Source: Spizellomyces punctatus DAOM BR117
Lineage: Eukaryota
Length of the DNA stretch: 51,612 bases
Strand: one strand, 5' to 3'
NCBI GenBank assembly: GCA_000182565.2
Contig: KQ257450.1
This document shows, piece after piece, positions 1 through 26,415 of this stretch. Below the pieces are notes generated by a model. That model worked only from the letters and a program-made list of their open reading frames with translations. It searched no databases and was not told the DNA's origin. The position numbers were made by a program, and so were the translations under genes. The stretch's first letter is position 1, and each line of letters begins with the position of its first letter.

Positions 1-542
1 GAGATCACACAAGTGTTGACAGACATTGCATCAGTCCTACCATAGCGGGCATTCACAATCTCCAAGAAGGTGTGCGCATTCGGTGCTACGCGTTTAACTT
101 GGATGGCCTGGAGAACAAAAGATGACCAGTTCAGTCGCATGTGGAGTTTTCCCCTCATGTATTGGCACCTACCAGAATTGCGAATAAAAGAACTTGAATA
201 GTTGCTCCGGCCGCGTACCAGAAGGGTCCGGAAATGCCGTATCTTGACAAGCATGATGAGTATGTTTTCGGTGTATGCATTTGTACGCCTCAAGCGTGCT
301 ACTTACTGGTATGCAACACTAGAACTTTGCAAAAGGGTAGCAGCCCAGGTCCAGGAACTAACAACCGCACAGGCAACCAGGCCTGTTTTCATGGATCTTC
401 CGGCGGTCGCAAACATCTCAGATGTCTGCTCTTCTTGCATGTAACGTTTGAGCAAGTACGTAATGAGGGTAATTAAAAGCGAAAAAAAGACGCCGAAGCC
501 CAGGACAACCGCCCAGCCGGCTCCTTGCGGTAAGACAGCCAT
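1..542 (-). CDS. DUR3: Urea/polyamine active transporter (sodium:solute symporter family); 5' part only, continues beyond the window start
   Basis: Exons 542-307, 242-173 and 107-41 with GT-AG introns splice to [17 protein letters not shown]...[85 protein letters not shown], the characteristic DUR3 N-terminus. Confidence 0.95.
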
Positions 543-826
543 GGAGATCTGGGATATGAACAGAGGATGAAGCTAGAAAGGCTAGTCGGAAGCGTGAAGG
601 TAAGAGTTGGAGGAGCAGAGTGGGGCATCTTGAAAGTCCCGCCGAATTTAAAAGAACTGAGGGCAATAACTCAAAGCAGATTAAGACCCGGGCGGAAACC
701 GCCGGATCAGCTGCAAAAGCAGGAGTTACTGAGGTTCTTGCTCCCAACAATGCCCGTGTTCGTTGGACAGGTTTCACGGAACCCTTTGCCATTTCCTTTC
801 AAGGTTTTCTTTGCAGATGAACAGAG

Positions 827-1119: not shown

Positions 1120-1408
1120 TGCCACTTTAACAACCTAAAAAACACGGGAACAACTCATTTGTTGTAGTACGCTAGATTGTCTGGAAAGCTCACCATCGTC
1201 CAACGTACCCGAACGAACCAATGACAAGCCAATGGCTGTTCTGACGTTTGGTTTGGGCTACTGGGGTTGTTCATGCATCATGCATTTCCTGCTTTTGTTC
1301 TACCATTGAAACAGAAGGAGCTAGAGAATTAGAGAGTCTATGCAGAATTTCTTTTTCGCAGGTCGAAATTTATATCAATCCCACCGTAATGCAACTGAAA
1401 TAACTATT

Positions 1409-1673: not shown

Positions 1674-2804
1674 ATGTACACCACAGAGCCTACCTCTCTT
1701 CCGCCCCGAACAACGATACGAACCTTATCCATTGCCCGACATGCTGATATAGTGAATACTCCACATTGGAGGCAAAAAGAAGTTGCAGCCTTGCGGAACG
1801 GAATACGGGCCACCGTATACATGACAAATGGTGATCGTTATGTAGGAGAATGGAAGGATGGTTTAAAAGAGGGTTAGTGAGTGTTATATTTTGGTAGACA
1901 AGGAAGCGGAGATTTATTTACAAAATGCATAGGCAATGGAACGTACTGTTACGCAAGCACGGGGGCCGTATACGAAGGGGAGTGGGCAAGAGATCTTCGC
2001 AACGGATTTGGAACATACTCTGTTCCAGCATTGCCTCAACCTGTTCAAGGAAAAACAAAAAAACCATTGCTTCCTTCGTTGCCCACCCTAAAAACGCCGC
2101 CTCGGGCGCAATCTACCCCAGGTTCTCATACTGGCCCTCTCCGCAAAGTCTATGCCGGGTCCTGGCTTGATGACCTCCGGCACGGCCGTGGCACTTGTTT
2201 CTACGAGGACGGCTCGGTATATGACGGGATGTGGGAGGAGGACGTCCGGGAGGGTTGGGGACGCATGACGTACAAAAGTAGTGGCAGCGTCTATGAAGGA
2301 GAATGGCATGAGGGAATGCGGCATGGGCAAGGCGTATTGGTCTTGGGTATGTATCTGCAATTGCCTTCATTTCCAATTCTGTATTTTCCTCACTCTCAAC
2401 CTGTGATAGCAAACGGAGACCGATACGAGGGAACTTTCCTCAACGACATGAAAGAGGGTCCTGGGCGATTTATTTATCGAACAAAGCGTCAATGTTATGA
2501 AGGTGAATGGGCATTGGACACGCCCAAGTGCGGGACGTTGCGGGACTTGCCCCCATTGGCTGGACCTGAGGGAATGGGCCCAAATGCTCGAAAGTGGTGG
2601 CCTATACCCGAGGTAAGCATTGCGGTGTGATAGCGAGACCGCTTTCGACATGTGGAGCTGTAAACTCACCCAGTTTTACACTATTGTTAGCTGAAATTGC
2701 AGGATCCTGCTGGTATTCTCGATCACGAACGCGAGGCTGTTCTGCAAGAACGTCTACAACGGATTATGGGAGAATCTTTGGAACATGATGGAGAAGCGGG
2801 TTGA
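1674..2804 (+). CDS. MORN-repeat protein, MORN3-like (flagellar/axonemal)
   Basis: Exons 1674-1872, 1933-2346, 2410-2612 and 2691-2804. Multiple MORN repeats (YVGEWKDGLKEGNG, YEGEWARDLRNGFG, YDGMWEEDVREGWG, YEGEWHEGMRHGQG) and a MORN3-like tail (PKCG...PIPELKLQDP). Confidence 0.85.
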
Positions 2805-3208
2805 ATCATAGCCACATATTTGAGCTCCATTGACTTTCCGGTGCTTGGCACTAACGAACACATCGTGTGCATCAATGTAGCAGCATTATAGCTGTCTATG
2901 TAGAAATAAGCAACATAACCACTTGCAATTGTCAAAAGGTGTGCAATGCCATTGCGACCTTCGTAATACCTCCTCAAGAAAATGGGTTGTATTACTGACG
3001 GAACGGCTTTATCTTAGTGTGGAGGTGATTGAAAATGGCACTAGGACCCTTTATTATCCGGATTAATCCGGTTAATCATATCGCATAATCAGCACCCCCT
3101 CTATTGCTCAAAACGGTGTGGCATGTATTGTAATGTTCGCCAAACTGTGGTGTGGCATGCATGTAATGTTTTTTTTTTTAAACTGCAGTGAGGCGCATGC
3201 CAAAGGTC

Positions 3209-3215
3209 TATAAAA
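3209..3215 (+). promoter_or_regulatory. Canonical TATA box
   Basis: TATAAAA followed by GGGGG and a pyrimidine-rich tract, about 95 nt upstream of the ATG at 3305. Confidence 0.55.
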
Positions 3216-3239
3216 GGGGGGCCTTTTCCCTCTTTCCTC

Positions 3240-3752
3240 TTTACCCATCCTCGACTCGCAAAACATCTGCGCAACGCTCACGCAGCACTCTCAAGTCCAT
3301 CATCATGAGAATGCCGCTCTGGTGCCGAGGACCTTGCCCTCCCGACAACAACAAACATAACCCCTTGCAAACGCTGCTACTACTATACTGCTACGATCGC
3401 AGGTATGCATTATCTTTGTATTTTCCCACGCGTATTCCCAGTCTAATTCCCATTACCTTAGTATCTGAACATCCTCCGACTAAAGAATTTCGGAAGGGCT
3501 TAGTAGGATTTCTCTCGTGTGGTGGGCTTAGTTACCCGGTTAGAACCAACCGTAATGTATTGCATGTGTAATTGGGCCTAGTGGTAGTTAGTGGAATCGT
3601 GCTGCTTTGCACGTACCCCAGTTCAACCCAGGCTGGAACCTGTAGCGAGTTAGGATAGGGGTGGGACTCGTTTGCAGGATAGGTTATGAAGGGTTGGACA
3701 GGCTGGCTAATTGTAAATTCGAACCGGCTGTAGTGGGTTGGAGGGAGCATTT
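3240..3752 (+). ncRNA. Candidate spliced, structured non-coding RNA or small-ORF transcript (34 aa, MRMPLWCRGPCPPDNNKHNPLQTLLLLYCYDRSI); ends approximate
   Basis: TATA box upstream. Canonical 59-nt intron at 3403-3461 (GTATGC...CTAAT...TTAG). Several long complementary segments with G-U pairs on the + strand. Confidence 0.35.
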
Positions 3753-3874
3753 GTCCCTAGTGACATTTTCTACCACCTGCACACTATCGTAAAAGGCAGC
3801 ATCTCATAAGCTTGTACAGCCCATCTTGATAAATTACAATTAACGAGTTTTTGAATGATCTTCATATTCCACGC

Positions 3875-3946
3875 AGCACCATAGCGCAGAGGAAGCGCGC
3901 AGGGCTCATAACCCTGAGGCCCCTGGATCGAAACCAGGTGGTGCTA
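3875..3946 (+). tRNA. Initiator tRNA-Met (CAT)
   Basis: 72-nt cloverleaf with acceptor stem AGCACCA/TGGTGCT (A1-U72), anticodon arm CAGGG-CTCATAA-CCCTG (three G-C pairs) and T-loop ATCGAAA (A54). These are eukaryotic initiator hallmarks. Confidence 0.97.
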
Positions 3947-3969
3947 CTAGTTGGATATTATCGTGGCAA

Positions 3970-3978
3970 TTTTTTTTT
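3970..3978 (+). terminator. Pol III oligo-T terminator of tRNA-iMet
   Basis: Run of T about 24 nt downstream of the tRNA. Confidence 0.75.
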
Positions 3979-4161
3979 CACTGTCCACTACATTGGAGGC
4001 ATTAACGCGCGCTAATGTACACCATATTTCTTTGGACTGTACCATAATCCTTGAACTAATGCGCTGAATTACTCTCTTTACCACACGAACGAGCATAAAC
4101 AAAAACTCGACATGCAGGAATAATACTGTTGATATGACACTACGGCTAATGAAATGTTTCC

Positions 4162-5392
4162 CTAGAACTGGTTCTTATTCTGCTTATGGAAGTTGTGATT
4201 CTGGTTGGATTTCTTCGAGTTATTGTTGTTGAAAGCTATGGAGCTGCTGGTTAATATCCGTATGAGACCATGCCAGATATGCACTAGGACATACCATTTG
4301 TGTTTGACAGGTTCTTGTGGTCCTTTTTGATTGAGTTATCCTGGTTCTTCTTGTGCAGCACGTCATTGTTGTTATTCGCTCTGAGATGATCCTTTTTGAG
4401 ATTGTTCTGGTTGAAGTTGTTCTGGTTGTTGTTATTCTGGAAAGCCGAATTCTTTTGATCCTTCTTATTCTGGTTGTTGATGATTTGAGGGCCCCACCAT
4501 CCGCCAGCAACTTCAACCTGTTCATTTTCGACCTCGGCAGCTTCAGCATCGTAACCGTAACCGCCGTAGGGATAGCCGTAGCCACCGTAACCACTAAACT
4601 TCTTGCCTTTACCGCCGTAGCCATAGCCATAACCGCCAGCAGCTTCAACCTCCTCGTTCTCTAGATCCGCAGCTTCAACATCGAACTTCTTGCCGTAACC
4701 GTAACCGCCGTAGGGATAGCCGTAACCACCGTAACCACCATAACCACCAAATTTCTTGCCTTTGCCGCCGTAACCCAAGCCATAACCGCCATAACCGCCC
4801 GCAACTTCTACCTCCTCTTCTTTGACATCCGCAGCTTCAACTTCGAATTTCTTGTTTTGCTTGTTGAAATGATTATTGTTGTTAACATTTTTCTTATTGC
4901 TGTTCTGGTTGTTTGCATTTTGATTGTTTTTATTCTGTAATGACGGGGAATCATGCGATAAATTAAATTCTGGCCCCAAACGATGAAAATCACAGCGTAC
5001 ACACCAAATGATCTTTTTTGATTGAGTTATTCTGGTTCTTCTTGTGCAGTACATTGTTGTTGTTGTTCGCTCTGAGATGATCCTTTTTGAGATTGTTCTG
5101 GTTGAAGTTGTTCTGGTTGTTGTTGTTCAGGAAAGCTGAATTTTTTTGATCCTTCTTATTCTGGTTGTTGATGATTTGAGGCCCCCACCATCCGCCAGCC
5201 GCTTGGACCTCTTCCTCTACAGCCTTAAACGATGAATGAAGGATGATGAGCAAGACGACAGGATGGGCCAAGGGACAGCCGCTGTAATCGACGGTGCAAG
5301 CATACCAAGTCTTGGGGCGCCGGAGCCGCGAGAGTAGGCGCAAAGAACAAGGCTGGAGCAATGCCGGCAGCAAGAAGATAGATGGTTTTCAT
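4162..5392 (-). CDS. Secreted repetitive protein with Asn/Gln/Lys-rich and Gly/Tyr-rich modules separated by acidic spacers
   Basis: Exons 5392-5306, 5223-5005, 4934-4295 and 4235-4162 splice in frame. Signal peptide MKTIYLLAAGIAPALFFAPTLA. TATAAAA on the minus strand at 5502-5496. Confidence 0.85.
4318..5199. repeat. Intragenic direct repeat of about 190 bp (4318-4508 and 5009-5199) flanking GGY-coding tandem repeats (about 4551-4810)
   Basis: Two near-identical copies encode AGGWWGPQIINNQNKKDQKNSAF...SIKKDH. Repeated (ccgtaa/ccatag) units encode GYG. Confidence 0.9.
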
Positions 5393-13146: not shown

Positions 13147-13935
13147 TTAAATACATCCAGCTGCTCGCTCTATTATCAGCAATGCAACACTTCCAATTTC
13201 TCTTGGTACTTGTTCCTTCCCATCTACCCTCCACGCTTCGCCCCATCCTCCAAACCTGCGCTTATCTACAATCCTGCACCGCAGATTCCATTTTTCTAGT
13301 AAAGGCTGAACCGTTCGCCGCGAGCTCCGTTCCTGATATGCAGTGATAAACTTGGCGGATGGTCGGCTTTGTGAGAGAATATATGCCACGCTGGCAATGA
13401 GATCGTCAAAGTCCCGAGGTTCGTAAAACACGTCGGCACCAAGAATGAAATCAAACAGGTAAGAAGGATCCGACAACGGCGGGAACTTGCCCCATTTCAA
13501 CCCGATTACACTACATACATCATCCACTTGATTAGCATGCACTGCATGCTGTGCATTCTTTAGTAGATGCTCTGCATCCGGTAAATCTGATAGTACGACA
13601 CGTTTAGCACCCAGCTTCGCCGCCAAGAGACCAGGTAGAGCTGTGCCGCATCCGACTTCCAGAACTTGCTTGTTGAAAAATCGGCCTGCATTCCAGTATA
13701 CAAATGCAGAAAGAACTAACGCAGAGGGCCAAAGGTAACTACCATAATCTGGATCTAGTAGCTCATGTAAGATAACTTGTACGGGCTGCTGCTCAACGGA
13801 AGTTCCTGTGCTCTTCAGAAAAGTGACATTCCGCGAATGCCCGGTGCCAGCGCCTGCGAGATGATTTGCCGTTTCCCCTGTATATCGTGGCTCTTCATCT
13901 GAGGATGAGCCGTAGTCGGGAGGCACCAAGGACAT
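13147..13935 (-). CDS. Family-16 SAM-dependent protein methyltransferase, METTL23-like
   Basis: Single exon with YGSYLWPSALVLS, VLEVGCGTALPGL, VVLSD, GLKWG, DFILGADVFY and AYQERS. Confidence 0.88.
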   Translation of the reverse strand: MSLVPPDYGSSSDEEPRYTGETANHLAGAGTGHSRNVTFLKSTGTSVEQQPVQVILHELLDPDYGSYLWPSALVLSAFVYWNAGRFFNKQVLEVGCGTALPGLLAAKLGAKRVVLSDLPDAEHLLKNAQHAVHANQVDDVCSVIGLKWGKFPPLSDPSYLFDFILGADVFYEPRDFDDLIASVAYILSQSRPSAKFITAYQERSSRRTVQPLLEKWNLRCRIVDKRRFGGWGEAWRVDGKEQVPREIGSVALLIIERAAGCI

Positions 13936-14140
13936 CTCGGACACGAGGAGATCTAGGACGTTGAGTGATTGAAGTGCGTCGTCTACCCTGTCTACATGGT
14001 AATTGGGGTTAGGTAAGGACCAGTGTCACGTGTGTGTTCCAACCTTCACCCTCCGATCAACCTTTGGCAAAAACCAAGCGTCGGCCTTCCACAAGAGATC
14101 TTTGGCGTAACGTCTATGTTATGTAGCGGATACATGTCGC

Positions 14141-17100
14141 ATGGTATATCTTGATCCTACTGCTAATGGCATTAGTTCCCGGTATATAGTCAAGCCAATG
14201 GAGCATGACATCATGTTACCGCGACCGGAACCGCCTGCACCACATCCGCATCCAGCATTGGAGTCCCATAACAGATACGGAAGCGCCATACAAAATTTAA
14301 ACGCAGGCGCACCAGCTCCAGTTAGTTCAACAGTACGCGCTCGAGCGATGCAATTGCAGTTGCAACGAACAGATGCACGAGCGATGAGGAATGGTCGAGT
14401 GAGGGTCGCCGCAGGTAGCGCTACAAAGACAACCGGGAAAAGTGGAGGCGGACCTGTTTCAGTTGAAGATGGAGGAAAAGCTCCTTTTGTAGTGCAATCC
14501 GCGACCATGAGAATGAGTTTGAATGAAGAGACGCCTTTCCCTCCACGCGTCGACAGGAAGACTTCGTCGGTGAACGCGGTCCGCGTACCGTACCAAGGGC
14601 GTAATATTGCGACAAATTACAAGTTTGTTCCACCTGCCGCTGCTAAATACTATCTATGGTGTGTGCAAGCATGTTGGGAACGGTTTGCCGGAGATGAAAC
14701 TCAAGAACTTCTTGAATAGGGACACTACAAGTGTAGGCCCGACGCATCTTCTCACTTCCGATCAGCTTTGTCCAGACAACATTCGCCTGCAAACTACAGC
14801 TATTCGCGCAAGTCTGTCTTTAGATCGCCCGCCGGTTGCAACAACATGGCAAGGAGTAATGTTGCAGGGCTTCTTCATCGGTCGCTACGTACCGCTGCAG
14901 TCGAGTGTTATCTTAGAATCTGTGCACCAGTTGAGTACCAAGGCGCTCGTGCTGGATAGATTTGACGCTGGACGAAGGTCCTCGCATACAGAAGTTGGAT
15001 TAGAGCCTACATTTGTTACCGGTGGAGATGCTGTAGTTACAGTGAGTTGATCAGCTGCAACTTGGTGCAATACTGCACTGCAAACGTCTTATGATATCTT
15101 TTTACGGCTCAAGGTTCTCCGACGAGTGCATGATGACAAAGAAATGATGTCACAGGAGACAGGATGCTGGTCATCGATGGAGTATGGATATGTTTTCAAC
15201 GTGCGTCGGGAGGCATTGATAGACTACATGCCGATGATTAACCGGCACTTACGAAATTGCTAGACTTTGCGAGAGCGCCTTAAGCGGCTAGATGACTGCG
15301 CTAACTTGGATATCGCTACTGTGGTTCTCAGTATGGATCTGGACAAGTCATTCCAACTCCAAGGATTAAAATGTGAATGGAGTGTGATCTTTTGCCAACA
15401 CATTTAGCGAGTACTTATGCTCATGTGAACAAGGCCAGGCGCTAATTCCCGATGTGATCCTCCGCGCACACCTGATCAATCCTTTGATGATTGTGCCCAC
15501 AACTTTGACAACGGATCTGTTGAAGCCACTGTCTGTAGCGGGAGAACAGGTTGATTCTGGGTAGGCATCTGCTGCTACCAACACATCAGAGTCTGTTACT
15601 GAACGATGGTTCACACCAGCTATGTCGCCATTGACCAAGCGCGTCATGTACTCACCCTTACCTGCAATGATCCTATGGCAACATCGCTGCCTTTAGCCGG
15701 AATGTGAGTGGACAGAAGTCGTATTTCGTATGCTTCGATAACTGATGGAAATGTGACAGTTGGGTGAAAGGCGCGCGACATATCCGAGACCCGAGTGTAC
15801 AATGTGCTTGCATTCGGTATATATGGAATTCAGTCATCAAGAAGTTGGATATGGGTAAATCGCAAGTGTTAGTCATCATATTCCAAAATTTCACATCTGG
15901 AACACCCCAGTTTTATGAATGCAATTATGAGGTGAGAATGGTTGTTGGCGCCCACTCTTCCGTTGATTGCTGACCAGCTCAAAGATCAGCGAAATTCCAT
16001 TCGCTCTCTACGAAGCGTCGTTACCAGTCCCGAAAGATGAGCACAAAGGAGACCTGAAAGCATGGCAGGACGTGCTTTCAGTCAATAATGGATTTGAGCT
16101 TAAGAAGGTCAACATTCGCGAATACTCTGGCGCTTGTGAAGCTATTGAAAGCGTTTTTGACATGTGAGCAGGCTTGGTAACTGGCAAAGGAGCTAGTTTG
16201 AAATGAACCTGATCGTATTGTTACTATCAGCCCAGTTGCAAAACGCCAAGTATCGAGTTTATCTCCACCCGCGGCGGTCGTTAAATCATCAGCCTCGCCA
16301 TTACGTGTTGCGGATGACAAGAATGTGGCTGACATTGCGATCACCGTCGACACCAATGCTTCTATTCCCTGGTCATCAACAGACGACGCCAATGCTTCGG
16401 CTCCCTCTTCATCAACAGACCAGGCAGAAGACAGAGCGTCATTCTGTGATGATCCTGGACAGAGCGTACGGGTGGATCAGGAACCGAAGACAACCGCAGT
16501 ATCTGTTCCACGTCAGGGCGACACAACTCAAACAAATGACAATGAGGACGTCGTTGTTAACGCCGTGTCAGAGCAGCAACAGTCGTATCTCAAGTTCCTC
16601 CAGCTGCAATTAGACATGCTTAAAATGCAAATGTCAGGCAAACAGGCTGCGAGCTCCTCCAAGCTGCAGTTTTGGCCGATGATCCCGATGTTTCCTTCCC
16701 CAGTCATGTTGACGACGTCAACGTCGTCTGATCCTGTTACTAGACGTACGGACGCTCGTATAGGTACGGGATGCGATGCAGCAACGAACACGACGGTATA
16801 TGTCGGGCATGACGATGTGCAGGCTCCGTTCTCGTCCAAAGAGGTCGGTGAACTATCGTATGATCTCAAGTCTGTTAGTATCCGCTGCTAAGATATCCGG
16901 CTTCCTTTGATAGTCCCAGCAAGCAGCTGAAAACAAGGAAACACAAATTCATGCAGTCTCTGAGAAGGCGGATTCCTCACCTCCCACCCGCCGAAAATCA
17001 AACAACGCACCAGCGGTGACACCCACGCTTGGAACTACTGATCTGGAATCAGTATTAAAGCGTATTAATCAGACTGATATCGAGCGAACATACCATTTAC

Positions 17101-18134
17101 CTGCGGACACGGGTAGTAACTACGAGGCTTTCTTCCAGTATGACCCGATTACAGATGAGGAAGAAAAACAGACTCAGGAGGACATTGTCCCCGGGCACAT
17201 GGATATTGAACAGGATGGCAATGAAATTGCAATTAAATCATCATTAATTCAAGGGCGTAGCGAATCTATCAAAAGACCAACATCAACTGATGAAACAAAA
17301 TCTCCGCCTACTGCGGACGGTCATTGCATGAGATCAGAAATCCGGGAAGTGACCGAAGGACGGACCCCCGTCGGAACGTTACTACGACGAGTAGCGGAGG
17401 TGCTAGAAAAGTCGCACGAGGATCCTCTACAAGATGACGTTGCCGTAAATGTGTCATCTGTGGAGGAGGTAGGAGAGGGCAAGACAGAATTGATACATAA
17501 CAGGAGTGTCCATGGAGCAAAGGATATCATCGCACGGTTAGCGAGCCATCCAGAACAAAGCTTCATCGTCATGGCTGACCACGGTGATTTTCCCTGTGAA
17601 AATCTTGTGGAGCAGTCAGTTGTGCTCAATACACCAAGGAAACAGACCATAAGGTCTAGTCCAGCCGTGGATCGAAACGATGTTACCGCAATTGTCCGGA
17701 ATTCGAAGCCTACACAGCTTACCGCTTCTCAAAACAAGAACGAGACAACCTTGTATCCCGTTATTGCATCGAAGGTAAAAATGTAGACAGCAGGCATTCC
17801 TGTCTAAGCACTAGCTGACATGCTTTCGGGTTGCCAGATGGAACCCATTTACAGAAAGAATCCGAGAAGCCCCTTAAAGATACTACAAAACTCAAATCTG
17901 AAGGCTGCCGAGTCCGACCCTGATACAACTTGTGAACAGTTCTCCCGCGCGACGCTCGAATATCTGCATAAGTACGGACTGCTGGATGCAGAAGAAATCC
18001 CCGACGTTAGGGTGGCATTTCAGACTTTAAATACAAATCGTACGGATTTGCAAGATTCTGTAAGAGGAGACGGTGATGCTTACACGCGGATACTTGATAT
18101 TACGCGAATTCAAACATTACCGAAACTGCATTGA
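14141..18134 (+). CDS. STIL: STIL/Ana2/SAS-5-like centriole duplication protein (multi-exon; internal exon boundaries only partly resolved)
   Basis: The intron at 14659-14719 gives FVPP...YLWDTTSVG. N-domain motifs GFFIG and LVLDRFDAGR. Central short coiled coil EQQQSYLKFLQLQLDMLKMQ. STAN-like FSRATLEYLHKYGLL. Terminal TIM-like ILDITRIQTLPKLH*. Confidence 0.75.
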
Positions 18135-18242
18135 TTGGAGAAAACCTGGGGGTGCTTCGTCTAGTTACAATAGGCTAGATCTAGTCAAATGTAGCCTGCC
18201 TGCGCCGTCTATCCTACATAACATGATACTACAGACTTAAAC

Positions 18243-21200
18243 TTAAAACAACCCAGAGACCCTTCCCGTCTCGGGATCCAAATCGACGTCGTAAAAGCAT
18301 GGACGCTATGATCAAAAGCATCAGCATCCAGCATCTGTTAAACACAGATGGCTTCAAAAACATATGTACACGTACCGTAGGTAGACCCGGCATGGTTTGC
18401 ATCTCTCCCAACAGAGGATACAAGAACCCAGCACCAACGGATGCTCGAATGTCTCGCACCGGAACCGTAAAGCCTGTGGAGTCATTATCAAAGTTTAGGT
18501 TTCGTTGGCCCATGATCTCAACACCAGCCGCAAGCCACGCATACCCATCGGAACGCCTTTCAACTTCGGATCGTGGGATAAACTGAGATGAGTCTTCGCC
18601 ATGCAAATAGGCAGTTTGTCGAAACCCTAGAGTTAAATCCGTTTTAGCGCCTTTTGAGGAACCATGTCATACCGGCTAGCGATTGCCTACTTGTGACGTG
18701 TACAATTGAATTTTGCTTTTTGCTACGTCGCTCAACTCCACGCCATCGGCTCCGTACATTTCCTTCGCAATGGTTTCGATTTTGTCCACGATAGGGAGGT
18801 TTACATCATAAAGGTACTTGAACGAAGCACCGCCCTCGCGCTTTGATGTATTGCAAACATCCACTACTGCCTTGGCCAAGTCCAAAGCCCCAGCACCACC
18901 TCGCGCCCAATGGTCAGTTACAACGGCTGCTGACGCACCGGCTTCGATCGCCGCTCGTTTCACTGTGTCAAGTTCCGCCTGTGTATCGGAACTGGGTACA
19001 ACAACAGAACGTGAGTTTGGTTGTTGAGGCCGTTTGCGCGCATAAAATAGCGCACCTGAATTTATTGATCGCCACAACAACGCTGATTCCAAACTTGCGC
19101 GCATTTTGGACGTGCTTTGCTAAGTTTGCACAGCCTTTGGCCACTAATCCAACGTCTTCCTGTGAGTACACGTCGCTGATGGGCTTGCCGGCCACGACCT
19201 CAGGACCCCCGCCATGCATCTTCAAGGCCTTCACTGTAGCGACGAGGACCACAGCATTGGGAACTAATCCGGAAGTCCTACACTTGATATCAAAAAACTT
19301 CTCCATGCCAATGTCGGCTCCAAAACCCGCTTCCGTCACAACATATCCGGGCTCGTCGTCATCTGCCAGTCCTGACGTACCGGCAAGTTTTAAAGCAATC
19401 CTATCAGCTAGGATCGATGAGTTACCGTGGGCAATATTAGCGAACGGTCCCGCATGCACAAACACAGGTGTTCCCTCCAGTGTTTGCATCAAGTTGGGTT
19501 TAATGGCATCTTTCATCAATACTGTCAGTGCCCCGCCCACACCCAGATCATCTGCCGTGACGGGCTCTCCGGCCATATTACTGGCAACAACCATGCGGCC
19601 GAGTCGCTCTCGCATATCCTTCAGATCGGTGGTCAACGCTAGCACAGCCATAATCTCGCTGGCAACAGCAATGTCAAAACCGGTTTCACGAGTACGCCCC
19701 TTTTCTTGAGGCCCCATGCCCACCATAATTTTCCGCAAGAAGCGATCGTTGGTATCCATCACACGTTGCCAGGTGATAGTCTCTGGGTTAATATCAAGCC
19801 TAGCAAAGCGACGCTTCTCCTCAGGCGTCAGGGTGTCAGGATCAGTTTCCTTGATACCTAATCGCTGCAGACGCCTAATCATAATATCGGAGAACTTCCG
19901 CACGCCCTTTTTCGCGGGGACAAGGCGATTGAACAACGTTTCGTCGTTAGGAGTAGTTGCTTCGTGGAACATCCGCGCATCTATTGCAGCAGCCAAAAGG
20001 TTGTTCGCCGCGGTTACGGCATGATTGTCGCCGGTCAAATGCAGATTGAACTCGTCCATGGGTATGACTTGAGAATATCCTCCACCTGCTGCACCTCCCT
20101 TAATTCCGAACGTAGGCCCTTGTGAGGGTTGTCTGACACATGCGAATGCTACTTTCTTGAGATTCGCTCCTAGGGCCTGGACTAGGCCAATACAGGTCGT
20201 TGATTTCCCTTCTCCCAAAGGGGTTGGTGTGATGCCGGTAATGACCACATAATTCGCATCCTGACGATGTTTGAGGCGATCCAATACGGTGAGGTTGACC
20301 TTCGCCTTGGTTGGACCGTACAGTTCGAACTCGGAAGGGAACAAGCCTAATTCCTCTGCCACAATTTTGATCGGCTTCGGCTTTTGTGCCATGGCAATAT
20401 CGATATCGCTTGGAACGGGTGTTTTGAGATCCAGTTTTAGATACTGGGTAGGCCTTCTGTAGCCTTTGAGGGAGCGCTTTGCACTTAGAACGGTGTTGTA
20501 CATCAGCATTGTCACAGTCATTGGTCCAACGCCGCCGGGAACGGGTGTAATCGCCGACGCTATTTGAGATGCAGATTCGAAATCAACGTCTCCCACCCAA
20601 CGTATTCCAGATTTCTTCGTGGAGTCGGGAATGGGATTTGTTCCAACATCGATTATCACTACTCCGGGTTTTAGCCACGATCCCTTGACCATCTGAGGTC
20701 TGCCAATAGCAGTCACCAGTATATCAGCAGTCCGCACAATATCCTCTAAGTTCTGTGTCCTGGAGTGGCACACAGTTACAGTTGCGTTCTCGCCCTGAAG
20801 CAGATGAGCAAGCGGCATGCCGACAATATTACTCCTCCCAACCACTACTGCTTTCTTTCCATTGAGATCCACCCCTAGTAATATTCTCCTCATATCAGAC
20901 AAATCGCATTGCAGTTGTAGAACTGCCTAAATTGCATACCAGCATGCCTCAAAAGCTCAATGCATCCTTTCGGCGTACAGGGTTCGAACAATGGCTCGTG
21001 ATCCCTCTTCGCAAGCAGACCGATGTTGAGGGAGTGAAATCTGGCGCAAAAAGACATGAGCCAATGTATAAGTATGATCGCTGCAACGCAAGTAACAGTA
21101 CCCATCGACATCCTTATGGTAATCAATCGCTTCCGTTACCAATTTCTCGTCCATACCATCGGGGAGGGGCAGTTGCACAAGTATGCCATGGACCCTGTAA

Positions 21201-21897
21201 TCATCATTAAGGGCATGAACAACCGAAAGGAGCTGGAAAGAAGTCTTCGTGTTGATCGAGGATATCTTCAGTAGCGCTCTTAAATCATGAAGCCTACCTC
21301 TGCCTGCGAAACGGTAGCTTCCAATTTGTGATGGGTGAATTTCATCCCAATCTAGGACATGGATAAAGTCAGTCTTTGCCTCGCGTGATTATGCGACATT
21401 TGATGACGCAGATTCCAGCCAAGGTACCTTGAGAGCTGCCTGCTGCTTCTGTCTCACATACAAGCTCGAATCTTCACGGTCGCCAACCTGAATAATGGCT
21501 AGGTGCGGAATGAACCCGCCGTTATTCTCGGAGAGATCGGTCACCTCATCACGAAGCTTTGCACGAATGGACCTGGATATGTCTGCACTCGTTAGTTCAT
21601 CGCCCACCGAACACGGGGCAGTTTCGAGTATAAATGAGGTACTGACTCTGCTAAGGCTTTCCCATCAATAATCTTTGCTCCAGCAGCCATGCTTCGTTTT
21701 ATATGTTGCTGCTGTGGTATCGGCGCTAAAAAGTTACGTTTCGTGGTATGAGCAAAACTGGGGCGTGCAGGTGGGATTGACAATCGCGAAGTATGCGTAG
21801 TAGAACACCGCACTGTAGAGGCGGAACACGTCAACAAGCAGCGAGGTATCACTGAGAATTCAAGCGGTAAAGATCGTAGCAGGAATCGGATGTGCAT
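18243..21897 (-). CDS. MTHFD1: Trifunctional C1-tetrahydrofolate synthase (ADE3/MIS1/MTHFD1 type) with a putative mitochondrial presequence
   Basis: [32 protein letters not shown] and [12 protein letters not shown], then the formyl-THF synthetase domain ([42 protein letters not shown]...GLF*). In-frame ATGs at 21897 and 21690. Confidence 0.97.
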
Positions 21898-21953
21898 AAA
21901 GCTCACCGTCTAGTAGTCAGCCCCAGAAAATGCCAACAAGGAGGTGATCGGTG

Positions 21954-21961
21954 TGACTCAT
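21954..21961. promoter_or_regulatory. TGACTCAT, a Gcn4/AP-1-type (also Bas1-core) site upstream of C1-THF synthase
   Basis: Exact TGACTCA about 57 bp upstream of the first ATG. Confidence 0.4.
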
Positions 21962-22418
21962 CGAATATAAACAATACAGTCAGTACTTGTAGTTAGGTGA
22001 AACATAATGGCCATTTTATTGGTCGAAAGAAGCTGCCTTCTGTCCTCCTCGTTTCTTGTTGCACTCTTATTGTCCCACGTCCCTCATCAAAAACCTGGAC
22101 CCAAAGTCCTCTGGTGGGTCAGTACACTCATCCCGAGAAGTTCTCAAAAAGTCGACTGCCGGCTGGCCCGTCCCTTTTCAAATCTCGAATAGCAGATGTC
22201 CGTGAAACCAGCGGATCATTGCAATGTCCATATTACCAATTGTGTTAGAGAGTCCTACCATCCTTACCTTGTTGCGCGCTTCTCTAAAACTTAAGTTCAG
22301 GATGGACCCTGTGTATCGACTGACGGAAGGGAGTCAGATTAGACTGTATAGAAGTGGCTAGCTTCACATTAGAACTTTCTAATTGATTAAGAAGCACTAA
22401 AGTGTTATAGATATAATG

Positions 22419-25400
22419 CTAGTCCTGAGCCAAATAACCTCCTCTACTACTTTCAGCCCGCACCTCCCATTCATTTTCAAGAAGCCAGTCAAGCGCTTTC
22501 TTTCGCGCACCCCAGGTTCCGTTCATCTCGCAATGACGCAAAAACGCCTGGATAAATGTGGCTAACAGCAGGTCCATTTCCAAAGGGTTGGATAGATTAG
22601 GTGATTTGGGGACATAGACGGGTTGCTCCGTTACGGGAAGCTCTTTGAACGAAGCAGGAAATACTATTTCGGTCACCCGCGTCTCACTTTGGTTGACGTT
22701 TGTCTGTTCGCACGGGGGGGCGGCAACACAGTCCAGCTGCTTATGCAGACCGCTCTTTTTGCTTGCTTTTGACTTCGTTTTGGCATCGACAAGAGTCCAA
22801 AGTGACAGAATAGCATCCCAATACTCCACCGCCCCCCATTCGAGCATAAACCTTTCCGCATCGGGTTTCGCCCGCGCTTTGTTGACTACGATGAAATCAC
22901 GCTTCACATCTTTTACGTGGTGGAGATTCGACACTAGCGGCCAGAGGGCATACATGCCAAAGGTGAACGCCTCGCACGCTGTTAGGACTCGGTCAACTTT
23001 CCATGCGTCAAACTTCAGCGATGATATTGTTCCCTCGCCATCAGCGGTGTTAAGAGAATCAGTAAAATCAGGGTGAATAAGACCTTCCCGCCATAGGATT
23101 TGCAGTCCTTCGTCATTATCGGTTCTGCATGCGAATGCTTTGACGCTCATCTCGTGTATCCAACGTCTCAGTCCAGTCAGCCAGGTCCGAACTGCCCACC
23201 AGCCCTCTGCTGTGGCAAGACCACGAATGATTTGAACCGGCGCCCGCGGCGTAATTGGACACCCATCCTCTATCATATTCCGGATGACCTCCTTTGCCTC
23301 GCCATGCATGCGTGCTGCCATGAAATATCCAACCATCGTTTCATATATCAACGGGTTCGGTGAAGAATCCAGCTGCGAGAGTACTTTTCGGTATTGAGCA
23401 TACACGGAACAGATGGCATTCCGGGAAGTTAAAAACTGCTCTGAATCCGGTGGTTCCCCTTTATGATTCACTATTTGTTCGTTCATCCCCTCTGTGTCCG
23501 TCAGACGTTCCTCCTCCCCAGATACAAACTTGTCAGCCAGCCTACGGACAAGTGCCTCGTATATCATCGAGGGAAGAACAACGCCCGTTTCTGTGGCTTC
23601 CACGAAGATTTCAAGCGCAGCCGCCACATCTTGCTGTGCAAGACAGGTTTTGATGAAAACTGCACCACTTTCCTCAGTTAATGTTATTCCGTCGATTTTC
23701 CTTGAAGCCATCCATTGCATTGCTCGGTCAAAATCGTTCTGAGCAGCAAAAGATCGCACTATAACCGCGTAGAGGAGAGCATCTGGAGACATCCCAGAGC
23801 TCTGCATGGCTTGAAACCATCGTGTGGCACCTTGTACATCATTTCCGCTTATGTGCGCATTTATGAGAGCAGTATAAGTGGCAACAGTGGGCTTCACACC
23901 GGCACTTAGCATTTCGGAAAAGAGCTGCCGACAGAGTTGTAACTCTCCTCGGCGGCCGTACGCATCCAACAAGCTTGTGTACGCATAGGCGCTTGGTTCG
24001 AGACTTGCCCCTTCATTGCCGGATTTCCATGCTGAAAGACCTTCATCGAACCAGCTCTTCGCTCCATCCACATCTCCTGCCTTGACATGCGCAGAAATAA
24101 GAGCGGCAAAAGTCCACCGGTCAGGCACAAGTCGCTGGTTAAGCATCGCGGTATAGAATTCGCGGACGTTGTTCAACCGTCCTGTTCTTCCGTATCCATT
24201 TATAAGGATATTATAAACGCCGACGTCGGGTTGAATCCCGTCTTCGTATAACCTGTTCAAAAGGCGGCCGACCTCTCTCATATGTCCTCGCTTTGCGTGA
24301 ACACTCAGTAGCAGCGAGTAAAACACGAGGTCCGGCTTTACATTCATGTAACGAAGTAGTCGATGCACCTTGCCCGCCGAATTCACATCTCCTTTTTCCA
24401 CATACCCCTTCAGCAGCAATGTGAATGTGCCTATGTTGGGTTTCTGGCCACATTTTACCATCGAATTGTACAGGTCCATAGCTCGATCCATCCGTCCACG
24501 ATCACAAGCAAGCTTTATCAGCCGGTTAAATGTGCGTAAATTTGGTGGTCGCTTAGCACTAGAATCTCTATGGTTCTCATTCTTCTGTATTATCCCCAGT
24601 CGTTGATTCATAATCGCCCAATACTTCTCCGCCATTTTCAAGTCTCGGGCACGTTCATACACTTCGATCATGAGGACAAGTGTTACTTCAGTTACCGAAG
24701 TCTTTGTCTTCTTCATTTCTCTATACCATCTTTCGGCACCAGCGGGATCGCGCGCATGCACAAACGCCTCGATCACACCATTCCAACAACTGGAATCTGG
24801 TTTCATGGTATCACGCACCCGATCGAAGACGCGCAGAGCCCCTTTCACATCGTGATTGCGACCGAACGCTACAATGAGACGGCCCCAGTCCAGGGCATGT
24901 GGTTGTATCCCAAGAGCGACCATATCCTCCATAATCATACCAATGTCTTTGGAAGAAATATTTCCAGCACGCAAAAGCAAGCCGATCAGGGCGCGGAAAT
25001 CTTTCAAGGTTAGGCTGCGAAGTAACGACCCGCATGCAGTCTCAGATCCAGAGGGTGAACGAAGATAGCAATAGTTGGCATGCAACCGAGCGGCTTCACG
25101 ACTCAATGCATCCTCAAAAAAGGGGAGGAAGCGGGCCCGGCTCACTTCTTCGACTTCGCGGACAAAGGATGTCACAAGGGACTCGTGGTTGACAAGATAT
25201 CTTGGATATGCAGTCTCCCCTTCTATACTTTGCGCTGACGCCGAGTGGGATGAGCGATACTTGATACTAAAGGAAGCTTCCCTCCGACAACCGTTGCATA
25301 TGTTCACACGCGGTACCGCTACATATTGGCGCTGCGTTGAGCGAGGGAAGGCAGCGTACCCTGCGACCTGTTGAACGCTAGCATGCGCTGCAAAAGACAG

Positions 25401-25499
25401 TAGCGCTGCAAGGGCGGGCGACTGTGTACGAAGAGAGTTCGACAGTCTCAAGCATCGGTGAGCAAATGTGTGCTGTCGCAGATCCCGCTCATAGCGCAT
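22419..25499 (-). CDS. Pentatricopeptide-repeat (PPR) protein, probably mitochondrial
   Basis: Intronless ORF of about 1026 aa from the ATG at 25499. Tandem 35-aa repeats (PNLRTFNRLIKLAC, PDVGVYNILINGYGRTG, PSAYAYTSLLDAYGRRG, PTVATYTALINAH) follow an Arg/Ser/Leu-rich N-terminus. Confidence 0.93.
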   Translation of the reverse strand: MRYERDLRQHTFAHRCLRLSNSLRTQSPALAALLSFAAHASVQQVAGYAAFPRSTQRQYVAVPRVNICNGCRREASFSIKYRSSHSASAQSIEGETAYPRYLVNHESLVTSFVREVEEVSRARFLPFFEDALSREAARLHANYCYLRSPSGSETACGSLLRSLTLKDFRALIGLLLRAGNISSKDIGMIMEDMVALGIQPHALDWGRLIVAFGRNHDVKGALRVFDRVRDTMKPDSSCWNGVIEAFVHARDPAGAERWYREMKKTKTSVTEVTLVLMIEVYERARDLKMAEKYWAIMNQRLGIIQKNENHRDSSAKRPPNLRTFNRLIKLACDRGRMDRAMDLYNSMVKCGQKPNIGTFTLLLKGYVEKGDVNSAGKVHRLLRYMNVKPDLVFYSLLLSVHAKRGHMREVGRLLNRLYEDGIQPDVGVYNILINGYGRTGRLNNVREFYTAMLNQRLVPDRWTFAALISAHVKAGDVDGAKSWFDEGLSAWKSGNEGASLEPSAYAYTSLLDAYGRRGELQLCRQLFSEMLSAGVKPTVATYTALINAHISGNDVQGATRWFQAMQSSGMSPDALLYAVIVRSFAAQNDFDRAMQWMASRKIDGITLTEESGAVFIKTCLAQQDVAAALEIFVEATETGVVLPSMIYEALVRRLADKFVSGEEERLTDTEGMNEQIVNHKGEPPDSEQFLTSRNAICSVYAQYRKVLSQLDSSPNPLIYETMVGYFMAARMHGEAKEVIRNMIEDGCPITPRAPVQIIRGLATAEGWWAVRTWLTGLRRWIHEMSVKAFACRTDNDEGLQILWREGLIHPDFTDSLNTADGEGTISSLKFDAWKVDRVLTACEAFTFGMYALWPLVSNLHHVKDVKRDFIVVNKARAKPDAERFMLEWGAVEYWDAILSLWTLVDAKTKSKASKKSGLHKQLDCVAAPPCEQTNVNQSETRVTEIVFPASFKELPVTEQPVYVPKSPNLSNPLEMDLLLATFIQAFLRHCEMNGTWGARKKALDWLLENEWEVRAESSRGGYLAQD

Positions 25500-25620
25500 C
25501 CCTTGGTGGTCAGGCAGTTCCCAACTGCCTGAGGTTGGGTCTTTCCACTGTTGCCATGGCCACCAAGTCACAACTGGGCAGGCAGCCGTAAGTTGTAACT
25601 CAGTCAGAGTGAACAACAAG

Positions 25621-26118
25621 ATGACTGCGTATGAAATTCAGAACCCGTCGTACCTTACGCTACCGCACCCGGCAACTGGACGGTTCAGCTCCTTTCAAAC
25701 ATTCTACCCATTTTATCTCGGAGAGCACGCGAACAAAACCTGCCGGCGGTTACATGTTGTGGGTGAGTTTTGGCAATTGCCAACTTTGGCCATTTCACGA
25801 GTGGAAGTCCTCGCTAATGGTTTTCTCATACCTATGCAGGAACATCCTTTGTGACAGGAACAATTATCTATGCAATCACAACTGCAACTGCTTCAGCCCT
25901 GAAGTGGGTTCCTATTCTAGGATATGGATTCGCCTGGGCAGGACATTTCTTTTTTGGTCCGTGCATAAAACCATAAATGGCATTACACACTGATAGACTG
26001 ATTAGATTGCCCATTTACAGAAAAGAATAAGCCTGCGACGTTCAAGTATCCCTTGTGGTCGCTCATGGGTGACTTCAAAATGTTTTGGGAGGTGATATCA
26101 GGGAAGAGGGCATTTTAG
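25621..26118 (+). CDS. DUF962 / Mpo1-like small membrane protein
   Basis: Three exons splice to ...FSSFQTFYPFYLGEHANKTCRRLHVVGT...GYGFAWAGHFFFEKNKPATFKYPLWSLMGDFKMFWEVISGKRAF*. Confidence 0.9.
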
Positions 26119-26415
26119 ACCACGTCTGCGTCCAGACCTCCATTTTCCATGTTTCGTTCCGCCCCGTAGATAGTGTATTAATTGTGTATAGTTCTCTCTT
26201 TCATGGACCAAATTACATGTATATTCTGTGATAGTACCGGTTCCGAGCCAAAGGCTAACTGATGATATCGATCGGTATTATGTCTCATGCAGTAAAATGA
26301 AAGCCTATATGATTAACTCTAACCCTCTTGTGTTTGAAATAGGTTATATCACATCATCATTAATAGGAAAAATGTGTGCATCGCCTCTAATAGCCACGTT
26401 TACGCTAAGCAAGTA

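Follow-up and report, generated by a model that had tools for sequence, protein, structure and literature searches.

Between positions 3209 and 3752 of the 51,612-nt stretch of Spizellomyces punctatus DNA analysed here (the window), a TATA box is followed by an intron, a very short open reading frame and several possible RNA helices, and the question raised by this locus is what kind of unit these features belong to. A sequence-only reading had proposed a novel structured noncoding RNA, a small-RNA precursor or a conformationally switching small-ORF mRNA, and the gene annotation of the locus, as given in the supplement of PMC10432273, does not include the spliced unit. Taken as a whole, positions 3209-3752 are very probably best explained as the interior of a ghost Spu-1 element occupying window positions 3015-3786, so that what had been taken for a novel structured ncRNA gene is really the inside of a catalogued many-copy repeat.

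A catalogued ghost Spu-1 element at 3015-3786

The element at 3015-3786 derives from SPu-1, a terminal-inverted-repeat transposon of S. punctatus, but is non-autonomous and lacks Fanzor. It is already known, as Saito et al. 2023 (PMC10432273) name the same locus a 'ghost Spu-1 element' in their Supplementary Data 2. The flanking text of the corresponding supplement entry (tRNA-Met, SPPG_00200, SPPG_00201) is identical to window 2400-2498, the tRNA-Met of the entry falls on window 3875-3946, and its two 'end' features, 517..546 and 1259..1288, map to the left-end and right-end inverted repeats (IRs) at 3015-3044 and 3757-3786, both listed on the + strand. The repeat thus measures 772 bp, with IRs of ~30 nt at its ends. 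Searched within the window, these ends are found as a 38-nt inverted repeat, 3008-3045/3756-3793, that is 82% complementary (E = 5e-4). At the left IR, 31 nt are identical between this copy and one ghost copy in the supplement, which holds near-identical ghost copies. TA dinucleotides lie at both termini (3015-3016 and 3785-3786) and, TA being palindromic, are counted within the IR; the SPu-1 description also has TA at the termini and terms the TSD 'putative' (Bao & Jurka 2013, PMC3627910). The two bases before the left IR (3013-3014) are CT, and the conserved CA that forms part of the CATA TAM, present in other ghost copies, is missing here. Because this is a single-base difference and the authors list the locus, membership was not taken as excluded.

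Ghost loci (n=134) are described in PMC10432273 as lacking an Fz ORF, with 30-nt IRs at their ends and a right end that encodes an omegaRNA scaffold. In the window copy a Fanzor ORF is likewise absent between the IRs, the longest stop-to-stop frame being 129 aa. Among proteins of 70-226 aa nothing homologous to this frame was found, six frames tested gave no Pfam family at E <= 1, and a PDB search revealed no similarity of the ghost frame to SpuFz1. A LAGLIDADG match (E = 0.3) was set aside as chance, with Pfam blind to it and a 4-nt insertion breaking the frame in both sister copies. Three further identities were rejected: a hAT-like element, whose terminus would fit YARNG, yet the 8-bp flanks agree at only 2/8 positions; a solo LTR, since the depth edges lack TG..CA ends and an IR of 30 nt would be unusual for one; and a decayed fold-back element, since half-to-half pairing is not above that of shuffles. 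With regard to the rest of the window, a C1-THF synthase ORF shows 98% identity to a Spizellomyces protein cluster, and six overlapping 'ORFs' at 32507-33730 are spurious, produced by a run of N.

The element is multi-copy and dispersed. Summed contig depth in the DNA runs X1 and X2 is 35-312 inside the element versus 2.3-3.2 outside it, and the depth jump falls exactly at 3014/3015 and 3786/3787, where the X1/X2 contigs end or diverge into unlike flanks. Self-BLAST of positions 2800-4100 returned no second copy within the 51.6-kb window, and 24 nt taken from exon 1 had 0 matches in a metagenome scan. Next to the left IR, on its inner side, is a palindrome of 12+12 nt without spacer (3053-3076, 92% complementary), which is also found in the other ghost copies compared. 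Upstream of the TATA box, a 14-nt motif occurs twice on the + strand at a distance of 34 nt (3115-3162, 93% identity) and is a candidate promoter element; sister copies have one unit only, and X1/X2 contigs jump 34-35 nt at 3135->3170. These and the other comparisons of the window copy with ghost copies relied on visual reading of the supplement text rather than on an aligner.

Compared with known systems, the copy shares with the ghost Spu-1 elements of PMC10432273 the same 30-nt IRs, the lack of a Fanzor ORF, a putative right-end scaffold region and the presence of many copies. It departs from them in the 712 nt between its IRs, where PMC10432273 gives 'around 550 nt' for ghost Spu-1, and from other ghosts in the CT that replaces CA before the left IR and in a diverged scaffold middle. 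Full-length SPu-1 elements, which encode SpuFz1, have IRs related to those of the ghost with 7/30 positions different (PMC10432273). Both types end in TA and carry, 135-165 nt inside the left IR, a TATA box; they also share the same layout, with the omegaRNA of full-length SpuFz1 loci at the transcript 3' end. The full-length element, however, is ~2.1 kb long and carries an intronless Fanzor ORF of 633-638 aa, whereas the ghost has an intron and no such ORF. The ghost also resembles Tc1/mariner (Stowaway-like) MITEs, being <800 bp with terminal IRs, TA ends, no transposase and many dispersed copies, but unlike ordinary MITEs it contains a putative guide-RNA scaffold, an intron and what appears to be a strong internal Pol II promoter. 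According to PMC10432273, no cognate transposase of Spu-1 is known and none lies within the IRs.

The ghost interior is strongly transcribed and spliced

The TATA box TATAAAA (3209-3215, + strand) is kept in four other ghost copies compared and coincides with a steep step in RNA depth. In RNA-seq run X3, of which ~6 in 100 was sampled, + strand depth rises from 4.9 in bin 3129-3209 to 13,570 in bin 3210-3290; it is 13,570-27,661 in the exon bins versus 5.5-36 in the adjacent MORN gene. Since this + strand MORN gene yields first mates on the + strand, the transcript is also from the + strand, and read orientation bears out the strand that had been favoured from G-U pairing. A 2.4-kb stretch accounts for 171,697 of the 26,394,413 reads sampled from X3 (0.65%); these are standard 60-nt RNA-seq reads, which are blind to omegaRNA processing. 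Run X4 contributed a single record, at 4615-4745, unrelated to the spliced unit.

Exon 1, which is non-coding, extends on the + strand over 3240-3402, with a 5' end somewhere between 3216 and 3260. At 3259/3260, 17,832 X3 reads begin to fit; transcription may start here, or the copies may differ here by an indel. The exon is followed by a 59-nt spliceosomal intron with GTATGC...TTAG ends (3403-3461, + strand). Junction 3402/3462 is spanned by 394 X3 reads with a gap of exactly 59 nt and GT..AG ends, 12,567 more reads start at 3460 with an unaligned exon-1-like head, and depth is 4-46 within the intron versus 6,900-36,000 in the exons; splicing at this junction is near-complete. The intron occurs at the same position in three other complete ghost interiors compared. 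As the junction reads are cis, a spliced-leader RNA gene was rejected. Exon 2 extends, as judged by RNA depth, from 3462 to the right end of the element at 3786 (+ strand). The sequence-only reading had thus placed TATAAAA at 3209, the 59-nt intron at 3403-3461 and a 34-codon spliced ORF correctly, and the junction check that it called for found splicing. X3 depth and junctions together establish a TATA-associated, efficiently spliced transcription unit without a convincing ORF.

What the reads confirm is transcription of the repeat family, which is very strongly transcribed from the + strand and almost fully spliced. Nearly all of the RNA stems from paralogous copies, and the window copy contributes at most a few per cent. 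Window alleles are seen in <= 2% of X3 reads: 3263 A in 53 of 20,887, 3271 G in 315 of 29,790 and 3335 T in 198 of 9,543 reads and, in exon 2, 3720 C in 4 of 1,342 and 3748 C in 9 of 1,316. Up to 3614, + strand depth in exon 2 is 27,661 and 25,760; from there to 3776 it is 812 and 1,395. Past 3589 most reads (9,544) run on into a different sequence, and most exon 2 reads must therefore come from another subfamily; a ghost copy of another subfamily has an exon 2 unrelated to that of the window. None of the X3 reads shows the transcript of the window copy passing 3786, and the depth of 98.7 in bin 3777-3857 is explicable by reads that end within the element.

The right end and a possible role in omegaRNA supply

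The strongly conserved parts of ghost loci are the IRs and the omegaRNA region, according to the legend of Extended Data Fig. 3 of PMC10432273. In the window copy, 3712-3786 (+ strand) is positionally homologous to the 75-nt ghost omegaRNA scaffold, of which it is a putative divergent variant. Visual comparison with the Ghost1-4 scaffolds shows a similar 5' stem arm and a similar 30-nt IR part but a different middle, and the predicted fold is no better than that of shuffles (z = +0.37). Given the architecture described in PMC10432273, the adjoining flank at 3787-3801 (+ strand) would, should this copy produce an omegaRNA, supply its 14-15-nt guide. Native omegaRNAs of 88-90 nt have been demonstrated for four Fz loci (PMC10432273), while the available text of the same paper makes no statement of native omegaRNAs for ghost loci. 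Ghost scaffolds function with SpuFz1 in human cells, as reported in PMC13434818. Two ghost entries also contain starts of annotated host mRNAs, which favour read-through of the right end: in one, the mRNA of exportin CRM1 begins with the ghost ATG, is spliced at the ghost intron and continues across the right IR, and in another, ghost exon 2 holds the start of the SPPG_03226 mRNA, which likewise extends past the right IR.

We give about even chances to the Pol II ghost transcript being the precursor or host transcript of ghost omegaRNAs. RNA polymerase II would start ~30-50 nt past the TATA box and read through the right end into the flank, and the 3' part of the RNA, consisting of the 75-nt scaffold plus 14-15 nt of flank, would be cut out as the omegaRNA. 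The SpuFz1 nuclease, encoded by full-length copies, would then use the ghost omegaRNA in trans. In such a scheme the spliced ghost leader would take the role played in full-length elements by the Fanzor mRNA, which has the omegaRNA in its 3' UTR. Host transcripts of snoRNAs and miRNAs are spliced Pol II RNAs without conserved coding capacity from which a small RNA is cut out; the ghost transcript would be comparable, except that its small RNA would lie in the 3' exon and flank and not in an intron. Among the three options put forward from the DNA alone, a small-RNA precursor comes nearest, as the unit runs into the right end with its putative omegaRNA scaffold and so is a candidate precursor. 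More tentatively, and at somewhat less than even chances, ghosts may be mobile guide-RNA expression cassettes, in which a strong TATA-driven Pol II promoter and an efficiently spliced noncoding leader would serve solely to deliver an omegaRNA, made up of the right-end scaffold and a guide from the flank of each locus, to SpuFz1 produced elsewhere.

The main alternative is a relic or selfish promoter, a strong TATA promoter with first exon and intron that the ghost would have either retained or gained, and whose abundant spliced RNA would be a by-product without a role in omegaRNA supply; we regard this as a substantial possibility, though one that we would not bet on. Its main consequence, which we consider similarly plausible without favouring it, would be that the copies act as mobile promoters or 5' exons for downstream sequence. 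Annotated host mRNAs that begin inside ghosts, using the ghost intron (CRM1) or exon 2 (SPPG_03226), are consistent with this alternative, as are an exon 2 that is not conserved between subfamilies, the frequent indels with which ghost copies evolve, and a downstream + strand that holds, in the window, only a tRNA gene. A transcript that is merely a by-product is harder to reconcile with its course straight into the conserved IR and omegaRNA region (PMC10432273). It also sits uneasily with the like layout of full Fz loci, where the omegaRNA is at the 3' end of a TATA-driven transcript, and with the finding, in PMC13434818, that ghost scaffolds work with SpuFz1 in human cells.

The small ORF and antisense RNA

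When spliced, the unit contains a sole ATG ORF of >= 20 aa, the 34-codon ORF across the splice at 3305-3468 (3305-3402 joined to 3462-3468, + strand). It is probably not a conserved coding sequence, judging from how it changes between copies. In favour of the spliced RNA being a small-ORF mRNA for a micropeptide, MRM... from 3305, the ATG and first ~15 codons resemble each other in the five copies compared, and weak support comes from the read substitutions in 3305-3402, of which 5/8 are at the third codon position and 4/8 are synonymous. This account is nevertheless very unlikely, as only 1/8 exon indels among the reads is a multiple of 3 and 7/8 are not. The ORF has 34 codons here, but in sister copies its length and C-terminus vary as a result of 1-, 2- and 4-nt indels. 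Moreover, the ORF has no homologue among proteins of 70-226 aa and no Pfam family, and the best PDB match is at chance level (E = 0.3). The earlier suggestion of a small-ORF mRNA is thus not borne out.

Low antisense RNA is present around the promoter (first mate on the - strand, depth 94-105 at 3129-3290), which, together with a few strand-switching X3 reads at hairpins and the many-copy nature of the element, would be compatible with a hairpin or antisense source of siRNAs that silences the SPu-1 family. In the exons, however, sense reads are more than 100 times as numerous as antisense reads, and the transcript contains no extended inverted duplication, and we consider such a source highly improbable.

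Apparent long-range helices follow from base composition

The sequence-only reading had described long-range, mutually exclusive RNA helices. All five helices form, with duplex energies of -21.2, -14.8, -9.1, -14.8 and -9.7 kcal/mol, and they appear in the MFE fold. The two halves of the region differ in composition, with a GC skew of -0.35 at 3200-3399 and +0.29 at 3500-3699, consistent with the C/A-rich 5' and G/U-rich 3' composition that the same reading had noted. The MFE of the whole region has z = -0.73 on the + strand, where 24/100 shuffles fold as well, and z = -0.30 on the - strand. When the halves were shuffled separately the value was z = -1.43 (8/100), and the spliced RNA gave z = +0.48 (69/100); the energies, including those from per-half shuffles, thus contain no signal of structure. 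The inter-half duplex is weaker than in 260/300 per-half shuffles, and the best local inter-half pairing score is equalled by 16/100. The only helix that beats shuffles is a local hairpin at 3639-3678 (+ strand, -17.7 kcal/mol, z = -2.66, 2/200 shuffles), which is identical in one sister copy and has one mismatch (3670 G>A) in the other.

Changes within the helices, taken from two sister copies and from read variants, comprise 3 that are one-sided and wobble-compatible, at least 9 that are disruptive and 0 that are compensatory. The disruptive, uncompensated changes are at 3362, 3670, 3313/3748, 3751, 3720, 3538 and 3592-3594, and C>U at 3372 and 3388 keep their pairs as G-U. In addition, most transcripts with the 5' arms lack window-type 3' arms, as 9,544 reads diverge past 3589 and depth falls from ~25,000 to ~800-1,400. 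The long-range helices are therefore a by-product of skewed base composition, arising from a C/A-rich 5' half facing a G/U-rich 3' half, and are not conserved. The pairings described earlier do exist, but shuffles show them to be within chance and sister copies show them not to be maintained; composition and lack of conservation, which the earlier reading had itself named as refuting, largely dispose of the structure and leave the transcript untouched. A search of Rfam 15 matched only the tRNA-iMet at 3875-3946, in agreement with the earlier failure to assign a known RNA family. Four other matches at E <= 10 (E 2.9-6.2) are far below gathering scores and all on the - strand.

A structured ncRNA switch, in which the long-range helices (3356-3373/3669-3688 and others) alternate with the local hairpin, is accordingly extremely improbable, for although its helices form in the MFE fold, its hairpin beats shuffles and two C>U changes retain G-U pairs, it lacks an energy signal (with the inter-half score reached by 16/100 per-half shuffles), its disruptive changes are uncompensated, the exon 2 of another subfamily is unrelated, and most transcripts that have its 5' arms are without its 3' arms. 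Where a C/A-rich half is joined to a G/U-rich half, apparent long-range helices need per-half shuffles before they are believed.

Implications for ghost loci

Inside the ghost element lies a genuine and very active transcription unit that has a TATA box and an intron and is presumably transcribed by Pol II. No description of its TATA promoter, intron or high expression was found in the literature; in the main text of PMC10432273, 'TATA' and 'intron' each occur 0 times and 'promoter' refers to U6/GAL only. The finding bears on the native transcription and maturation of Fanzor omegaRNAs and on the purpose of the >100 ghost loci, questions left by PMC10432273 and PMC13434818. An active ghost unit, a layout shared with Fanzor loci and host mRNAs that start in ghosts make both the precursor and the mobile-promoter ideas directly testable and, as S. 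punctatus is transformable, testable in the native host. If ghosts are indeed guide-RNA expression cassettes, they would supply a large and highly expressed guide repertoire, at least 0.65% of the sampled RNA-seq reads falling on the family, and would, as a side effect, equip host genes such as CRM1 with promoters and first exons.

The interval belongs to a ghost Spu-1 element

The interval 3209–3752 sits in a gap of ~1 kb, flanked by a + strand MORN-repeat gene (Pfam MORN, E = 6e-25), whose 3′ end faces it, and by a tRNA-iMet gene (3875–3946). It is part of a ghost Spu-1 element, a transposon derivative without the Fanzor (Fz) gene, and this element has its own TATA box and intron. Repeat searches and self-BLAST within the window revealed a 38-nt inverted repeat (IR) at 3008–3045 and 3756–3793 (82% complementary, E = 5e-4). 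In X1 and X2, two low-coverage DNA runs from the same organism, contigs switch to unlike sequence precisely at 3014/3015 and stop at 3786/3787, which are symmetrical positions in the IR. The summed contig depth is 2.3–3.2 in the flanks and 35–312 over ~3014–3787, which we take only as a sign of many dispersed copies and not as a copy number. The depth is highest in the left part (210–312) and falls to 36–55 beyond 3615, so the right part represents a smaller subfamily.

A C1-THF synthase ORF elsewhere in the window shares 98% identity with a protein cluster from Spizellomyces, followed by hits in other Spizellomycetales, which confirms the chytrid origin suggested by the sequence-only reading. 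Saito et al. 2023 (PMC10432273) report that S. punctatus DAOM BR117 carries SpuFz1, the Fanzor nuclease gene, at 42 loci, alongside 134 ghost Spu-1 elements. According to the same report, ghosts have two IR-homologous regions but no Fz ORF, and share a conserved ~550-nt interior, 30-nt IRs and a conserved CA preceding the 5′ IR. A 75-nt ghost region including the right IR resembles the scaffold of the omegaRNA, the SpuFz1 guide RNA; native omegaRNAs reach 14–15 nt into the flank, which is the guide, and the target-adjacent motif (TAM) is CATA. The parent SPu-1 element is described as about 2,100 bp long with 33-bp TIRs and a putative TA TSD (Bao & Jurka 2013, PMC3627910), in agreement with the TA found at 3015–3016 and 3785–3786. 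A text search of the PMC10432273 supplements located ghost copies nearly identical to 3015–3330, as well as this very locus: an entry with tRNA-Met has deleted-flank text identical to 2400–2498, “end” features corresponding to 3015–3044 and 3757–3786, and its tRNA-Met at 3875–3946. The element, its family and the exact locus are already known.

Between its IRs that supplement entry carries no annotated feature. The words “TATA” and “intron” are absent from the PMC10432273 main text, where “promoter” is restricted to U6/GAL constructs. The ghost coverage seen in PMC13434818 is limited to 74–76-nt scaffolds, and the term-searched passages of 10.1101/2023.08.09.552727 and PMC3627910 do not describe a TATA-driven, spliced ghost interior. 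Within these texts and our literature searches we found no published description of such a highly expressed unit; the supplements of PMC10432273 may show it, as may its figures, among them the IR-to-IR alignment of ghost loci in Extended Data Fig. 3a,b.

The product of a neighbouring minus strand gene (4284–5126) is repetitive, has a high content of Gly/Tyr and Asn/Gln and matches no Pfam family; a contig from a metatranscriptome matches the repeat region of this gene only. Farther along the window, six overlapping ORFs of 324–387 aa are pseudo-ORFs produced by a run of N at ~32602–33560, which is either a gap in the assembly or withheld sequence.

The ghost interior is transcribed and spliced

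The + strand TATAAAA (3209–3215) and 59-nt intron (3403–3461, GTATGC...TTAG) proposed in the sequence-only reading are both present. We sampled ~6 in 100 of the 60-nt reads of the RNA-seq run X3, and 171,697 of 26,394,413 sampled reads (0.65%) fall within 2400–4800. The first mate is sense in this run, since the + strand MORN gene shows a + depth of 5.5–36 versus 0–1.8. The + strand depth is 4.9 immediately upstream of the TATA box (3129–3209), 13,570 at 3210–3290, 19,166 at 3291–3371, 27,661 at 3453–3533 and 25,760 at 3534–3614, followed by 812 at 3615–3695, 1,395 at 3696–3776 and 99 at 3777–3857. The element's first 200 nt on the left combine the top DNA depth with hardly any RNA; therefore the signal is not DNA contamination, and transcription begins downstream of the TATA box. 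Splicing at 3402/3462 is confirmed by 394 reads that skip the 59 nt with GT..AG ends, and the listed positions have a total depth of 4–46 in the intron versus 6,930–36,283 in the exons. A further 12,567 reads, which start at 3460 with an unaligned, exon-1-like head, are spliced reads of paralogues. On the minus strand, antisense or divergent reads surround the ghost promoter (3129–3290, first mate on –, depth 94–105), again at the family level.

The TATA box is preceded by a duplicated 14-nt motif (3115–3128 and 3149–3162; spacing 34 nt). Some DNA contigs hold one unit only (X1/X2 skip 34–35 nt, 3135 to 3170), as do two sister ghost copies of the same subfamily, and by eye a full Fanzor locus has a similar motif at a similar distance upstream of its TATA box. 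The duplicated motif is a candidate family promoter element. A perfect-looking 12+12-nt palindrome immediately inside the left IR (3053–3076), found also in the other ghost copies examined, could be a protein-binding site.

The RNA derives almost entirely from other copies. Only in part do 165,046 of the 171,697 reads fit the window, and non-window alleles predominate at 3263 (A>G, 20,834/20,887), 3271 (G>C, 29,475/29,790), 3335 (T>C, 9,345/9,543), 3720 (C>A, 1,338/1,342) and 3748 (C>A, 1,307/1,316); 9,544 reads pass after 3589 into a different, uniform sequence. Because of these partial fits and alleles, the transcript is established for the family and not for the window copy, which has every signal intact yet is at most a minor contributor.

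The spliced RNA contains a single ATG ORF of at least 20 aa, the 34-codon ORF noted previously. Indels of 1, 2, 3 and 4 nt make the ORF frames differ among copies, and of the 8 exon indels tabulated from the reads, 7 have lengths not divisible by three, so the unit is non-coding or encodes at most unconserved peptides. In a + frame of exon 2 (3460–3568), 36 aa are similar (E = 0.3) to the region of the second LAGLIDADG motif in two homing endonucleases of solved structure. This likeness is probably due to chance; Pfam is silent and a 4-nt insertion disrupts the frame in both sister copies.

Long-range helices are neither unusual nor conserved

Long-range, mutually exclusive helices had also been proposed. 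The five helices can form (duplex energies of –9.1 to –21.2 kcal/mol), the halves are skewed as described (5′ C-rich, 3′ G-rich; GC skew –0.35, then +0.29) and Rfam detects no family in the region apart from the tRNA. Nonetheless, the long-range pairing does not exceed chance. Folding of the 544-nt region yields –167.8 kcal/mol, and dinucleotide shuffles average –163.1 ± 6.4 (z = –0.73; minus strand, z = –0.30); shuffling per half, the control called for in the sequence-only reading, gives z = –1.43 with 8 of 100 shuffles folding as well, and the spliced RNA has z = +0.48. The inter-half duplex (–122.4) is weaker than the per-half shuffle mean (–130.5), 260 of 300 shuffles being at least as strong, and the inter-half local pairing score of 41 was equalled or exceeded in 16 of 100 per-half shuffles. 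The only unusual helix is the local hairpin 3639–3678 (z = –2.66). RNA-seq strand switches at small hairpins (3508–3557 and 3639–3679; 3–19 reads each) are consistent with snap-back cDNA artefacts from a very abundant RNA.

We compared by eye one full Fz locus, ghost copy 1 from another subfamily and the two sister copies, all from supplement text. Ghost copy 1 matches the window in the left IR, upstream region, TATA box and ATGAGAATG start, and has an intron at the equivalent position (GTATGT...CTGAC...AG); it lacks the 3′ arms of the helices because its exon 2 is unrelated. In the first and second sister copies, respectively, pair 3372–3670 (C-G in the window) is U-G and C-A, 3362–3682 (C-G) is C-G and G-G, 3388–3587 (C-G) is U-G and unchanged, and 3310–3751 (A-U) is A-C and A-G. 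Pair 3313–3748 (G-C) is A-A in both, and 3543–3720 (G-C) is G-A in both and in 1,338 of 1,342 X3 reads. The outer 3 bp of helix 2 (3592–3594) are lost to a 13-nt deletion in the first sister, and the second has a 4-nt insertion in the arm. The reads also carry 3538 G>A (16,779/29,972) with no partner change listed. In the sister copies and the reads together, we count three one-sided wobble-compatible changes, each of them C>U, and nine or more disruptive ones, with compensation in no pair. The helices are not conserved.

Possible guide RNA precursor or mobile promoter

The family-level transcript is very abundant, + strand, spliced and directed toward the right end. In the full Fz locus the left IR is followed by about 135 nt and TATATAAA (by eye, PMC10432273 supplement), and the annotated mRNA extends beyond the right IR. 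The ghost layout is equal, but a short spliced non-coding unit replaces the gene. We consider the chances about even that the Pol II ghost transcript is a precursor RNA, from which an omegaRNA (scaffold plus flank guide) would be cut and loaded onto SpuFz1 supplied by full-length copies. The scaffold of the window copy itself is a divergent variant whose folding stability does not exceed that of shuffles (z = +0.37), and this copy has CT at the TAM-side CA position.

The main alternative, which we regard as possible though doubtful, is that the ghost promoter represents a relic or is selfish, and that it would chiefly provide a mobile promoter together with a 5′ exon.

Deposited gene models at other ghost loci support transcripts that begin in ghosts and cross the right IR. 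In the model for exportin CRM1, the mRNA opens at the ghost ATG and is spliced at the ghost intron before it passes the right IR, with the ghost ATG exon and intron serving as its 5′ UTR; the SPPG_03226 model begins in ghost exon 2 and likewise crosses the right IR. Ghost copies may thus serve as mobile promoters for host genes.
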